64,000 bases of DNA from Escherichia coli O127:H6 str. E2348/69 (GTDB lineage Bacteria > Pseudomonadota > Gammaproteobacteria > Enterobacterales > Enterobacteriaceae): the NCBI RefSeq assembly GCF_000026545.1, contig NC_011601.1. One strand, written 5' to 3'. The translations under genes and the position numbers were made by a program. This document shows, piece after piece, positions 7,210-34,607 of the stretch. How positions within the stretch are numbered: position 1 is the stretch's first letter; the number at the start of each line of letters is the position of its first letter. The notes beneath the pieces are model-generated. The model made no database searches and had not been told where the DNA came from. It saw nothing but the letters and a program-made list of their open reading frames with translations.

Positions 7210-8793
<1,584 letters not shown>

Positions 8794-30068: not shown

Positions 30069-30436
30069 CAAATTCTCCAGCAATAACAGTTAATGCGCCG
30101 ATACATTCACAAATCATGCCAGTTTTTAATTTACTGTTATTTAAGGAAATTAAATTCTGTAATGCAGGAAAAACGATGTCATCGACACTAGTGACGATGA
30201 CATGTGATGACAGTATTTATCGTTGCCAGTCCACATCTGGGTACTTTTTTCCGACAAGTCGTTCTGGTGGTATAAAAAAGTAATTGCCAGTAACGGGGAG
30301 GATTTAAGGGAAGCAACCGTGCCGGATACGGCGTGAACAATGACCACTTTGTCAGCTATCCATATGATTGTATTTTGAGGTTCATCGCAGATTAGCGATG
30401 AACCTTTATTGTGCACAGAAAACCCCCAGCTAGGCT

Positions 30437-31986
30437 CTGTCTCTTATACACAAATCCCCACCCGGGGATTTGTGATGTCTGTCAGTCTGCTTTAGGGGGA
30501 CTCTTTCCATCCGGTAGTTTCCTTCCTCCCCGGCAGCGATTTTTTGAACTTTTTCCTCACCCGTTGATCTTCTCTTATATTTCATTTTCTTCGGGTCTGT
30601 TATGGTACTTTCTGATTGTTATTCATGGGCTAACGAGCAGTTTGGACATGCCCGTCTCGGTGATCCGCGTCGTACACGACGCCTTGTGTCACTGGCCTCT
30701 TCTCTCGCTCAGCATGCAGGTCTTTCTATTGTGAAATCATCCCAGTCCACTGCTCAGGTTGAAGGTGCGTACCGCCTGATACGTAACCCGTCTGTGTCCC
30801 CGCAAGCCATTGCCGAAGCCGGATTTACCGCCACTGTAAGGGCATGTGAGGCTCATCCGCTGCTCCTCGCGCTGGAAGACACCACCACCATTAACTTCAG
30901 TCACAGTACGGCATCTGATGACCTGGGGAATACCACCACTAACCCGAAGACGCGCGGGCTGCTGGCTCACTCTGTCCTGATGTACGCCCCCGACAGCGCC
31001 CTGCCAGTCGGTCTTATCGAACAGCAGCGCTGGAGTCGTGCCACGGACACCTACGGTGTTAAGCACCAGCGAAAAGAACGTCCCTATGAAGAAAAAGAAA
31101 GTTACCGCTGGCAGCAGGCTTCGGAGCGCATGGCCGAACGGCTGGGGGAGATACAGAAACGGGTAATCACTGTCTGTGACCGGGAAGCGGATATCTGGCA
31201 TTACCTGCATTATAAAGTCAGCCACGGGCAGCGCTTCGTGGTGCGTGCAGCACAGAATCGCCGGCTGGAAGAAGCACCCGGCAAGCTCTTCGAACTGCCG
31301 GAAGTCCTGGCAACCGCGGGAAGCCACACGCTGAATGTGATGCAAAAAGGCGGGCGGGCAGCCCGCCAGGCCCGGATGTTCATCAGTTACAGCGAAGTCA
31401 GCATAAAAAATCCCGACAACAGCGGCCAGGCGCTCCCGCTCACGTATGTCTGTTGCCGGGAGCAGGCAGAGGACGGCGCCTGCTGGCATCTGCTGACGTC
31501 AGAAAAAGTGGCGAGTGCCGCCGATGCGCGACGTATCGTCAGCCATTACGAGCGACGCTGGCTGATAGAGGAATACCACAAGGCGTGGAAAAGTGGTGGT
31601 ACATGTGTGGAATCGCTGCGAATGCAGACCCGGGATAACCTCGAGCGCATGGTGGTTATCAAGGCGTTTATCGCGGTGCGGGTGCTGGGCCTGCGGCAGG
31701 GCGGTATCAGTGAAGAAACACAAAATGACAGCTGTGAGAAAATACTGACGCCGACAGAGTGGAAACTGCTGTGGGTTAAGCTGGAAGGAAAACCGCTTCC
31801 GTCACAGATGCCGACACTGAAATGGGCCTGTCTGAAACTGGCGAAACTGGGGCGATGGCATGACAGCAAACGCACCGGTCGCCCCGGTTGGGTAGTCATG
31901 TGGGATGGCTGGTTCAGACTTCAGGATATGGTTGAGGGTTACCTGGTGATGAAGTCTCTTGATCAGGAGATCTGATCAAGAGACAG
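30437..31986 (+). mobile_element. IS4-family IS50(Tn5)-like insertion sequence, copy 2 (1550 bp)
   Basis: Same termini as copy 1; perfect 9-bp target duplication agctaggct at 30428..30436 and 31987..31995. Confidence 0.88.
30602..31975 (+). CDS. IS4-family DDE transposase (Tn5 Tnp-like)
   Basis: Identical 457-aa protein to copy 1. Confidence 0.88.
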   Translation: MVLSDCYSWANEQFGHARLGDPRRTRRLVSLASSLAQHAGLSIVKSSQSTAQVEGAYRLIRNPSVSPQAIAEAGFTATVRACEAHPLLLALEDTTTINFSHSTASDDLGNTTTNPKTRGLLAHSVLMYAPDSALPVGLIEQQRWSRATDTYGVKHQRKERPYEEKESYRWQQASERMAERLGEIQKRVITVCDREADIWHYLHYKVSHGQRFVVRAAQNRRLEEAPGKLFELPEVLATAGSHTLNVMQKGGRAARQARMFISYSEVSIKNPDNSGQALPLTYVCCREQAEDGACWHLLTSEKVASAADARRIVSHYERRWLIEEYHKAWKSGGTCVESLRMQTRDNLERMVVIKAFIAVRVLGLRQGGISEETQNDSCEKILTPTEWKLLWVKLEGKPLPSQMPTLKWACLKLAKLGRWHDSKRTGRPGWVVMWDGWFRLQDMVEGYLVMKSLDQEI

Positions 31987-32112
31987 AGCTAGGCTGGGGG
32001 TTCCGGAAAGCTTTCAGCTTTGAGCCAGTTATTAAAACCCCTTTTGATTTGTTAAAACACCTTGCGGTCTGGCAACTGCAAGTGTCAAACAAGAAATCAA
32101 AAGGGGGTCCCA

Positions 32113-32571
32113 ATGGGGAACGAAAAGAGCTTAGCGCACACCCGATGGAACTGTAAATATCACATAGTATTTGCGCCAAAATACCGAAGACAGGTGTTCT
32201 ACAGAGAGAAGCGTAGAGCAATAGGCTGTATTTTGAGAAAGCTGTGTGAGTGGAAAAGTGTACGGATTCTGGAAGCTGAATGCTGTGCAGATCATATCCA
32301 TATGCTTGTGGAGATCCCGCCCAAAATGAGCGTATCCGGCTTTATGGGATATCTGAAAGGGAAAAGCAGTCTGATGCTTTACGAGCAGTTTGGTGATTTG
32401 AAATTCAAGTACAGGAACAGGGAGTTCTGGTGCAGAGGGTATTACGTCGATACGGTGGGTAAGAACACGGCGAAGATACAGGATTACATAAAGCACCAGC
32501 TTGAAGAGGATAAAATGGGAGAGCAGTTATCGATTCCCTATCCGGGCAGCCCGTTTACGGGCCGTAAGTAA
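32113..32571 (+). CDS. tnpA: IS200-family transposase TnpA (Y1 HuH)
   Basis: Identical to copy 1 TnpA. Confidence 0.85.
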   Translation: MGNEKSLAHTRWNCKYHIVFAPKYRRQVFYREKRRAIGCILRKLCEWKSVRILEAECCADHIHMLVEIPPKMSVSGFMGYLKGKSSLMLYEQFGDLKFKYRNREFWCRGYYVDTVGKNTAKIQDYIKHQLEEDKMGEQLSIPYPGSPFTGRK

Positions 32572-32722
32572 CGAAGTTGGATGCAAATGTCAGATCGTGT
32601 GCGCCTGTTAGGGCGCGGCTGGTAAGAGAGCCTTATAGGCGCATTTGAAAAACCTCCGGCTATGCCGGAGGATATTTATTGAATAATACTATTTCGACTG
32701 AAATAACAGGTAAGGATACAAA

Positions 32723-33151
32723 ATGGGTTCATGGGGAATGGAGGCTCTCGAAAGCGACGAAGGGCTGGATTTGATTAATTGGGTAGAGGAACAACTGCAA
32801 GATGATTCGACCTTTGATGCCGAGTCAATTGTTCAACGCTTAAGCCAGCATGAAGATTTGTTCGGATTTCAGGGAGATGAAGAATTTCTCTACGATAATA
32901 ATGTTATCGGTCTCGTTGAACTTATCATTCAAAAAGCAGCCGGGAAAAAAATCACATCGAGTAAACAAATTGATCAACTCGACGGTTATCAGCTCACGTC
33001 GACTTTCAGCAAAAAACTCCAGGGCCGTTTACAAACAATCGACGACACACATGAGTGGATAATGCTTTTCGAGGGGCGAGCACGCGAAAAAGCAAAAGCA
33101 TATCTGATTGAGCTTACTGATAAATTAAGAGTAGTAAAGACAACAGCCTGA
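32723..33151 (+). CDS. Hypothetical acidic protein (142 aa), function unknown
   Basis: Intact ORF with downstream hairpin terminator; no family recognised by inspection. Confidence 0.5.
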   Translation: MGSWGMEALESDEGLDLINWVEEQLQDDSTFDAESIVQRLSQHEDLFGFQGDEEFLYDNNVIGLVELIIQKAAGKKITSSKQIDQLDGYQLTSTFSKKLQGRLQTIDDTHEWIMLFEGRAREKAKAYLIELTDKLRVVKTTA

Positions 33152-33242
33152 ATGACAAACAAGGGCGCGCAAAATTAAGAATCTGCGCCCTTTCAAAGCC
33201 CGACAGGCGTAGCGCATCAGGCGATTTAGCGTCTGCCATCAG

Positions 33243-33662
33243 TCAAAGAAACCATTCCGGCTTAACGCCAAATCGGGCTGAAAGTGCCTTAATGTGGGAT
33301 ATCGTCAGGGATCGTTGTCCAGATAAAATCTGACTGACCAGGGATTTAGAGCCGATTTCGTTCTTCAAATCCGCATAGGTCAGATTATGTTGATCAATCA
33401 GCGTACGAAGTAACGCCACGCCAACCGACATTGCTGCAACGGCTTTGTCGAACTCTGCAAACTTTTCGTTATTGTTTTCATATTCTGCAATGCGGCTCGC
33501 CAGAAAGTCGATAAGTGGATTGGTGTCATCTTCTTCAATCAAATATTCGACCAGTTCCAGTGCTTCACGATAATCATCTTCTGAGTCACTGCCTCCCAGA
33601 AAGGGGACTGCATTGACCAGTTCTCTTGTTGCTTTAACAGCGCGTGCAGCATTAGCAGTCAT
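33243..33662 (-). CDS. higA: HigA-like antitoxin (HTH, Xre family)
   Basis: 139 aa; resembles K-12 HigA as recalled (AVPFLGG, ALELVEYL, IGSKSLVSQILSGQRSLT, FGV); start overlaps toxin stop. Confidence 0.75.
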   Translation of the reverse strand: MTANAARAVKATRELVNAVPFLGGSDSEDDYREALELVEYLIEEDDTNPLIDFLASRIAEYENNNEKFAEFDKAVAAMSVGVALLRTLIDQHNLTYADLKNEIGSKSLVSQILSGQRSLTISHIKALSARFGVKPEWFL

Positions 33663-33970
33663 TCTTTGTTCTCTCTGTAGTAACGTGTCAGTTTGTCATA
33701 CTCTGCGTGATTCGTGATGTGCTTCACAAAGAACCGCTTATTAACAAAGTTTATGTAGGCAATAACCCTAAGATTGTTCCCGCCGACATCCAGAACGTAC
33801 CATTTGTTGCGATATTTAAAATTGTCGAGGTTGGGAAAAGCCGTTCGCATTTCTTCTGGCGTAGAAAAATCCGTTTCCTTAATAACCCGATACAATGAGT
33901 GTAGAGCCAGAGCGTCGTTAGGATATTTGCGCGCACACTCTTCAAATGGCGCTTTCGAAATGATGTGCAT
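33659..33970 (-). CDS. higB: HigB-like mRNA interferase toxin (RelE/ParE superfamily)
   Basis: 104 aa from internal Met with SD aggaag; FPNLDNFKY...YVLDVGGNNLRV...HAEYD resembles K-12 HigB as recalled. Confidence 0.75.
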   Translation of the reverse strand: MHIISKAPFEECARKYPNDALALHSLYRVIKETDFSTPEEMRTAFPNLDNFKYRNKWYVLDVGGNNLRVIAYINFVNKRFFVKHITNHAEYDKLTRYYRENKE

Positions 33971-34136
33971 TTTAACTTCCTTATTAGCGCCTGAATGACT
34001 AAACCTGGACAACCATTCCTTGGGATTTATTTTTCTATAGTAGTTGATCACACGGGTGTTCACAATATGTAAACACCCGTCTACACGTCACAATAGCACG
34101 TCCAAATTCCAAAACGTGAACATGTTTGTCTACGAA

Positions 34137-34607
34137 CTACTCTTCTTCCGCCGCTAACTGCGCGAAGCCGCCATTTCCTTCCCAGCCTTCCAGCCGCTGA
34201 TACACCGTTTCCACCGCATCTTTAATCTGCTGAGTCATCGGGTAGTAAAAGCCGACGATATCCGGCTGGATGCCAAGGAAAATCACTTCGCCAATATCTT
34301 CTTTCAACTGGTCGATAAGATAGTTCAGCGGCATGTTATGGGTAGTCATCATAAACATCTCGGCGATGTCAGCCGGGTCGATGATGCGGATCTCGCTAGG
34401 GTTTAGCCCCATATCCGTGGCGTCGACAATAAGCAGCCGTGTCGGGCGCAGTTCGCGGATAGCGACAATGTCGTTTTCCGGTGCGCTACCGCCGTCAATC
34501 ACTACCCAGTTACCTTTCGGCGCGGCAGCGCACTTTTCCGCCAGTAGCGGGCCTGCGCCATCATCGCCCATCATGCTATTGCCAACACAGAGTAAAACGT
34601 CAGTCAC
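34137..34607 (-). CDS. hycI: Hydrogenase 3 maturation protease HycI
   Basis: 156 aa, HycI sequence by recall. Confidence 0.93.
   Translation of the reverse strand: MTDVLLCVGNSMMGDDGAGPLLAEKCAAAPKGNWVVIDGGSAPENDIVAIRELRPTRLLIVDATDMGLNPSEIRIIDPADIAEMFMMTTHNMPLNYLIDQLKEDIGEVIFLGIQPDIVGFYYPMTQQIKDAVETVYQRLEGWEGNGGFAQLAAEEE

Follow-up and report, generated by a model that had tools for sequence, protein, structure and literature searches.

The stretch of DNA that we analyzed (the window; 64,000 nucleotides) takes in the hydN–hycI region of Escherichia coli E2348/69 (EPEC O127:H6). In this region an open reading frame for an acidic protein of 142 residues lies between a composite insertion element and the toxin-antitoxin genes higA and higB, which are transcribed towards it. 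The DNA from 32600 to 33260 is 100% identical to that of three E2348/69 assemblies. The features on which the analysis draws, in the coordinates of the window, are as follows.

30412..32674 (or 32681), plus strand: composite insertion, IS200C split by ISEc13 (annotation, alignment with an IS-free strain, Pfam, Rfam)
32675..32722, plus strand: native leader remaining after the IS insertion (alignment with the IS-free strain CU532-9)
32711..32716, plus strand: Shine-Dalgarno-like TAAGGA, 6 nt 5' of the ATG (read from the sequence)
32723..33151, plus strand, stop codon included: coding sequence of the 142-aa acidic DUF4259-like protein, WP_000536065.1 (ORF list, RefSeq annotation)
33161..33192, no strand assigned: hairpin 3' of the DUF4259 stop codon, with a 9-bp stem (33161..33169 paired with 33184..33192) and a 14-nt loop
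33198..33240, no strand assigned: REP-like element, right border of the DUF4259 cassette, present also in strains without the gene (four-way alignment)
33243..33662, minus strand: higA (Pfam HTH_3, RefSeq)
33659..33970, minus strand: higB (Pfam HigB_toxin, RefSeq)

The reading frame begins cleanly, as an earlier note on this DNA had proposed from the letters alone. Its first possible start codon is the ATG, and 6 nt upstream stands the AAGGA core of a Shine-Dalgarno sequence (32712..32716), which is kept in IS-free strains and in the allele of a diverged Escherichia lineage. All homologs in the alignment share the N-terminus M-G-[SA]-W-G, which fixes the start. The acidic N-terminal half described in that note is equally evident, with 18 D/E against 2 K/R in residues 1–71, compared with 9 D/E against 13 K/R in the remaining residues; the pI of the whole protein is 4.5. 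The N-terminus, MGSWGMEALESD, is unlike a signal peptide (judged by eye), and the AlphaFold2 model is all-alpha with a mean pLDDT of 88.

The composite insertion upstream has Pfam matches to Y1_Tnp and to DDE/Tn5 transposases. ISEc13, whose ends (CTGTCTCTTATACACA) are IS4/Tn5-like, lies within the left-end hairpin of IS200 and is bordered by a 9-bp duplication, AGCTAGGCT. The right junction of IS200 is ambiguous by 7 nt (32674 or 32681), because IS200 has at its right end a heptamer, TTTATTG, that is present in the target too. Alignment with CU532-9 places the insertion 41–48 nt upstream of the ATG, where it parts the gene from the sole promoter-like site of IS-free strains. In those strains the native leader is preceded by a hairpin (GGTTCATCGC..GCGATGAACC) and by this site, TTGTCA-16-TATTTT (L002:5945-5972), a pattern no more frequent than expected by chance; in E2348/69 both have been pushed ~2.3 kb upstream, near 30360..30411. 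Promoter scans gave no site close to the ATG and only chance-level sites farther upstream. From the alignment, the insertion is specific to E2348/69 and is foreign to the native context of the gene. The placement between mobile elements and a toxin-antitoxin module, on which the note had remarked, is therefore accurate for E2348/69 and does not extend to IS-free strains, the composite being strain-specific. Directly after the right end of ISEc13, in the 5' region of IS200, Rfam reports the Hfq-binding sRNA STnc490 (31980..32103, 116.9 bits).

Downstream, the hairpin that had been described as the gene's own terminator is present, with its 9-bp stem and a folding energy of −13.6 kcal/mol, a stability not above that of shuffled sequence (z = −1.0). 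The plus strand continues after it with UUUCAAAG and has no U-tract, and a consensus terminator scan returned the hairpin on the minus strand only, that is, for higA. The structure thus stands; as a terminator of the DUF4259 gene it is weak, and it scores better as one for higA. The locus of strain O111:H8, which is without the gene, is also without the hairpin, so the hairpin is part of the DUF4259 cassette.

Membership in DUF4259

Against Pfam PF14078 (DUF4259), the protein scores 17.5 bits (E 0.0076), residues 2–82 aligning with profile positions 1–78 of 133, and so falls below the gathering cut-off of 22.8 bits. Neither NCBIfam nor PADLOC returned a family for it. RefSeq names the 142-aa allele 'DUF4259 domain-containing protein' and the commoner 145-aa allele, which carries an in-frame duplication of YDN, 'hypothetical protein'. 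A search with phmmer, run exhaustively against 1.8 billion representative proteins, returned no more than 25 matches, among them two long repeat proteins (P0132 and P0139) that proved on inspection to be low-complexity artefacts. A profile made from the phmmer matches retrieved 448 proteins of 150–160 aa, most of which have a precomputed PF14078 assignment; Paenibacillus, Faecalibacterium, Fusobacterium, and metagenomes are the sources of most of these.

PF14078 matched 14 of 15 relatives (best E 8e-11). We then compared a profile of the E. coli clade (the E. coli protein, the diverged Escherichia allele, and the proteins of Listeria costaricensis and Isobaculum) with 18 canonical DUF4259 members by HHalign. 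The result, a probability of 99.6% with an E-value of 2e-24 over 137 aligned columns, places the protein in DUF4259 as a divergent but full-length member, and ten columns are invariant in 32 sequences (M1, G2, W4, L9, D12, G14, L15, D58, E66, and E111). Judged by these alignments, the E. coli protein is a divergent full-length DUF4259 homolog, as RefSeq already has it. The earlier note had recognized no family and advised a profile search; that search supplies the family.

The protein and PF14078 are alike in MG[AS]WG from residue 1, in D12, G14, and L15, in an F-L-Y-D-N block, and in E66. Members of PF14078 have ~130–170 aa and are predicted to be helical; the E. coli protein is of the same length class and all-helical in its model. 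It differs in its sub-threshold score, confined to the N-terminal 82 residues, and in the C-terminal half of the sub-clade that it forms with the proteins of E. albertii, Listeria costaricensis, and Isobaculum, in which DDTHEW replaces the usual DEDGEREIVELW and which is ~10–15 residues shorter. Acidity is uniform and pronounced across the family (median pI 4.25, median net charge −21).

Sequence searches of the PDB gave no match to the single 142-aa protein and, with a profile, a best E-value of 0.11, which is chance-level; no solved structural relative was found in these searches. A structure search with the model returned generic helical scaffolds and BAG-type co-chaperone domains as best matches, all with low scores. 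The literature that we found on DUF4259 consists of a passing mention in a lanthipeptide cluster, and a search for the RefSeq accessions of the E. coli protein returned no publication.

Distribution and history in Escherichia

The DUF4259 gene occurs in 725 of 5426 complete E. coli genomes (~13%), always as one chromosomal copy and with at least 97.5% DNA identity. The E. coli carriers seen as examples, which include EPEC E2348/69 and ST131, belong to B2, and E. albertii records include an identical protein as well. At the protein level the gene has no match among the 50,697 records of the phage collection or the 72,556 of the plasmid collection, so an origin as mobile-element cargo, which we considered, is not supported.

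Comparison of gene orders defines the unit that varies. In the IS-free B2 strain CU532-9 the order is hydN, a 3' remnant of ascB, the DUF4259 gene (plus strand), higA, higB, and a gene for a 251-aa hypothetical protein (all three on the minus strand), and hycI. The diverged Escherichia lineage has the whole ascGFB operon 5' of the DUF4259 gene, and O111:H8 has ascB, higA, higB, the hypothetical gene, and hycI with no trace of it. A four-way alignment delimits a cassette of ~600 bp, consisting of the gene, ~115 bp upstream of it, and the downstream hairpin, which lies between ascB and higA and stands in for the ~33 bp found between two REPs in gene-free strains.

The gene has a GC content of 42% (GC3 40%), against 53% for the window. 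The E2348/69 and diverged Escherichia alleles are separated by 13 synonymous and 12 non-synonymous differences (dN/dS 0.22), and 11 of the 12 replacements fall in the C-terminal half of the protein. A scan of one genome per species across 100,044 species identified the nearest relatives in Listeria costaricensis (64% identity) and Isobaculum melis (36%) and no further proteobacterial copy, save one of canonical type in a betaproteobacterial metagenome-assembled genome (MAG). Taken together, the cassette structure, the low GC content, the dN/dS ratio, and the species distribution indicate that the gene came into E. coli laterally, belongs to its accessory genes, and is under purifying selection.

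The comparison brought out other differences at the locus. Loci of the B2 type (E2348/69 and CU532-9) retain beside hydN only the last ~60 nt of ascB (~30250..30340 in the window; encoding ...KKSFWWYKKVIASNGEDL and the stop); deletion has removed the ascGFB operon there and spared the DUF4259 cassette. Between higB and hycI (33971..34136), E2348/69 is without the 251-aa hypothetical gene that is present in CU532-9 (L002:7459-8214), O111:H8, and the diverged lineage. No Pfam family was found for this 251-aa protein, and a 254-aa protein encoded beside the Isobaculum gene proved, on comparison, to be unrelated to it. Between E2348/69 (32723..34607) and the diverged lineage (L094), dS is 0.34 for hycI, 0.17 for the DUF4259 gene, 0.075 for higA, and 0.064 for higB, values that come from a small number of sites and hint that the islet of DUF4259, higA, and higB was exchanged more recently than the flanking core.

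Gene neighborhoods and a possible role in immunity

Zhang et al., 2012 (PMC3482391) defined two arrangements, heterogeneous polyimmunity loci and polyimmunity proteins, that involve Imm33, Imm51, Imm68, SUKH, and SuFu. DUF4259 is absent by name from the searched text and supplement of that paper; its homologs lie in co-directional arrays of the same type and are fused to the Imm68-Imm33-SUKH-SuFu giants that the paper describes. In Fusobacterium, for instance, one co-directional array encodes DUF4274, DUF5713, Imm51, DUF6630/DUF4241, DUF4253, DUF1963, WGR, and DUF2262 in its 5' part, and continues with DUF4259, SUKH-3, UPF0167, MORN, Ank, and SUFU. Contigs of the Oscillospiraceae/Faecalibacterium type carry Imm51 and other small genes 5' of DUF4259 and, only 3 nt downstream of it, a gene for an 1866-aa protein that comprises Imm68, Imm33, DUF4261, SUFU, DUF7832, and DUF4253, and then SMI1_KNR4 or Imm32. 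The order is DUF5713, DUF4259, TPR+Imm51 in Paenibacillus and SUFU, DUF6138, Ank/DUF4274, an unknown gene, DUF4259 in Lysinibacillus sphaericus. A stand-alone Imm68 gene directly follows DUF4259 in a Cytophagales genome; 5' of DUF4259 lies a SUFU-DUF7832-Imm33 protein in Peptococcaceae and an Imm-NTF2 protein in four Clostridia genomes. Such co-directional polyimmunity loci were seen for homologs in Fusobacterium, Clostridia, Paenibacillus, Lysinibacillus, and Cytophagales and not for the E. coli gene or its closest relatives: the copies of E. coli, Listeria costaricensis, and Isobaculum are single genes amid housekeeping genes, and that of E. coli stands alone, outside any array.

In three genomes (Lachnospiraceae AM48-27BH, Anaerosacchariphilus hominis, and Lacrimispora), the DUF4259 domain continues in frame into a giant polyimmunity protein; joining to further immunity domains was seen in homologs only. 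Two of the fusions (L073, 507 aa, and L076, at least 592 aa) join DUF4259 to Imm68 and Imm33. The third (L074, 2232 aa) comprises these three domains and, in addition, SUKH, DUF4261, SUFU, DUF7832, and DUF4253; TPR is also among the fused domains. The fusions stem from two different stop-codon substitutions, TGA to CGA or to CGG, and could be neutral, as they amount to single stop-codon changes in a locus that is ~93% identical across genera. This DNA identity, over the pair formed by DUF4259 and the giant polyimmunity gene (L071-L077, L022, ~8420..8520), extends across the gut Clostridia genera Oscillibacter, Clostridium (sp. AT4), Anaerosacchariphilus, and Lacrimispora, and suggests that the polyimmunity locus has recently spread among them horizontally.

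For at least 31 of 74 species-level DUF4259 loci, a phmmer census with 30 labelled reference proteins detected an immunity-type neighbor no more than three genes away, nearly always co-directional; the references were taken from DUF4259 neighborhoods, so the count reports recurrence, not unbiased enrichment. The 43 loci with no such neighbor include all actinobacterial ones, most of those in Paenibacillus/Brevibacillus, and those of the three closest relatives of the E. coli protein. Pooled immediate neighbors are heterogeneous, with 96 families in 108 proteins and no dominant family among the matches listed. In the loci scanned, a non-exhaustive set, no toxin gene lies beside the E. coli gene or its homologs. 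As none adjoins any family member examined, no cognate toxin can be named, and DUF4259 was not found in the position that Zhang et al. (2012) use as a criterion, directly 3' of a toxin gene whose C-terminal toxin domain varies.

We propose that the E. coli protein may be an orphan immunity protein, small, cytoplasmic, strongly acidic, and all-helical, of the type that belongs to polymorphic toxin systems. When competitors inject a protein toxin, it would bind the toxic domain and neutralize it; the toxin would perhaps be basic and directed at nucleic acid, and the negative charge of the immunity protein may reflect mimicry of nucleic acid. The strain itself makes no cognate toxin at this locus. 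Because the relatives sit in toxin-immunity gene arrays, a stand-alone immunity protein is the most likely role, ahead of that of a HigBA partner, and we put the identification of the E. coli protein as an orphan cytoplasmic immunity protein against an interbacterial toxin at somewhat short of an even chance. That the DUF4259 family neutralizes toxins, and that the E. coli copy retains this activity, we infer. A fuller statement is more tentative still: DUF4259 would be an uncatalogued family of polymorphic-toxin immunity proteins, of which B2 E. coli holds an orphan copy from the Firmicutes that protects against a specific toxin, probably one targeting nucleic acid.

In favor of an immunity role we count the co-directional arrays of immunity families in four phyla, the in-frame fusions in three gut Clostridia genomes, the uniform acidity of the family, and the patchy, accessory-gene behavior in E. 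coli. Against it count the lack of a toxin-immunity pair in the loci scanned, the lone position of the closest copies, the 43 of 74 loci with no immunity neighbor, and the shallowness of the fusions. Acidity is also common in small cytoplasmic proteins, and the polyimmunity role of several of the DUFs that accompany DUF4259 is itself only a prediction. The earlier note had suggested 'an immunity or accessory protein' from the placement between mobile elements and a toxin-antitoxin module. That argument falls away, and the immunity part of the suggestion gains support by another route, through the polyimmunity loci and fusions of the relatives.

Known systems offer partial parallels. Like polymorphic-toxin immunity proteins, the DUF4259 protein is small, cytoplasmic, patchy in distribution, and laterally transferred. 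The colicin DNase immunity proteins (Im7/Im9) and barstar inhibit nucleases; like the DUF4259 protein they are small, helical, strongly acidic, and cytoplasmic, and charge complementarity to a basic toxin is a plausible mode of action. In the case of orphan immunity genes and of acquired interbacterial defense (AID) clusters, an immunity gene is kept without its effector, is laterally acquired, and varies among strains, and protection against defined T6SS effectors of non-kin has been shown by experiment (Ross et al., bioRxiv 10.1101/471110; PMC12247911; PMC10539506). The E. coli gene would fit this concept in being lateral, variable, and effector-free; by contrast, its closest relatives are in Gram-positive bacteria, the toxins of which are not known to reach E. 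coli.

The main rival to an orphan immunity role is that DUF4259 is a conserved cytoplasmic protein unrelated to toxins, such as a stress-related, chaperone-like, or regulatory helical adaptor, that hitch-hikes in variable accessory regions, of which some happen to gather immunity genes as well. The loci with no immunity neighbor would be expected under this explanation, as would the efflux pumps, regulators, esterases, and two-component systems among the pooled neighbors, the housekeeping surroundings of the closest relatives, and the low-scoring structural matches to generic helical scaffolds and BAG-type domains. It leaves unexplained, however, that in four phyla DUF4259 is repeatedly found in tight co-directional adjacency to Imm68, Imm33, SUFU, Imm51, and Imm-NTF2, that a 3-nt spacing and in-frame fusions couple it to polyimmunity genes, and that its distribution is patchy and laterally transferred; we consider it less likely than the immunity role.

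We think it improbable that the protein serves a different conflict system, for example as an accessory of anti-phage defense or by inhibiting a protein of a phage or plasmid. Small, acidic, and laterally mobile, the gene lies in a variable islet beside a HigBA pair similar to PD-Lambda-2 A and to the N-terminal part of PD-Lambda-2 B, and inhibitors of DNA-binding proteins are commonly acidic and helical. Yet PADLOC assigns no family to the DUF4259 protein at E-values up to 1, only its higBA neighbors giving a match; the phage and plasmid records hold no copy; and the homologs are surrounded by immunity arrays and by no recognized defense system. As to the pair itself, HigB matches the PADLOC model PD-Lambda-2_A (E 2e-15) and HigA the N-terminal 115 of the 402 positions of PD-Lambda-2_B (E 9e-14); with a HigA of only 139 aa, the two do not make up a full PD-Lambda-2 system.

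A role as third, accessory component of the HigBA module, which the earlier note invited by proposing a co-occurrence analysis with higBA-like pairs, is very improbable. The DUF4259 gene and higA are physically adjacent, with the hairpin at 33161..33192 between their 3' ends, and a low GC content (41–45%) is common to DUF4259, higA, and higB. These 3' ends are convergent, however, so the genes do not share an operon. Nor is co-occurrence obligatory: higA or higBA is present at the locus in 2508 genomes (in 1091 with 80% or more of the pair covered) and the DUF4259 gene in only 725, and O111:H8 has ascB, higA, and higB and no DUF4259 gene. Outside Escherichia, none of the DUF4259 homologs examined has HigB or HigA as a neighbor. 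The orientation, the wider spread of higBA, and its absence beside the homologs examined make the link positional only, and we reject the accessory role, which the distribution largely refutes by itself. In many E. coli genomes higB has been deleted and higA alone is left.

That the frame is spurious or a decaying, functionless remnant is the least credible explanation of all: its inconsistent annotation (a 145-aa 'hypothetical protein' and a 142-aa DUF4259 protein), the truncated variants that exist in the protein database, the lack of a convincing promoter, and the severance of the native upstream region by the IS in E2348/69 are set against the dN/dS of 0.22, a YDN indel that keeps the frame, full-length homologs across phyla with ten invariant columns, and the confident AlphaFold2 model. 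The earlier note had named lack of conservation, or a spurious frame, as what would undo its proposal; with the gene conserved in 725 genomes and this dN/dS, the objection fails, and the ORF at 32723..33151 is a real gene, far beyond chance.

Were the orphan immunity reading to hold, DUF4259 would have a testable function, and there would be one more immunity family with which to profile interbacterial warfare in gut metagenomes. Gut and extra-intestinal B2 lineages would be protected from a specific interbacterial toxin, and a lineage-restricted gene of clinically important E. coli would become a possible determinant of competitive fitness. Should it be wrong, what is left is an accessory gene of the ordinary sort, annotated before this analysis. 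In both cases the proposed tie to HigBA can be dropped.

The one further proteobacterial copy has a setting of its own. In the betaproteobacterial MAG (L036, 5437..9661), the canonical DUF4259 gene lies in an array of seven small genes, closely packed and all in the same direction, for proteins of 150–200 aa. Four neighbors of DUF4259 were scanned there, none with a Pfam family, and on the strength of this arrangement the array may consist of uncatalogued immunity-like proteins.
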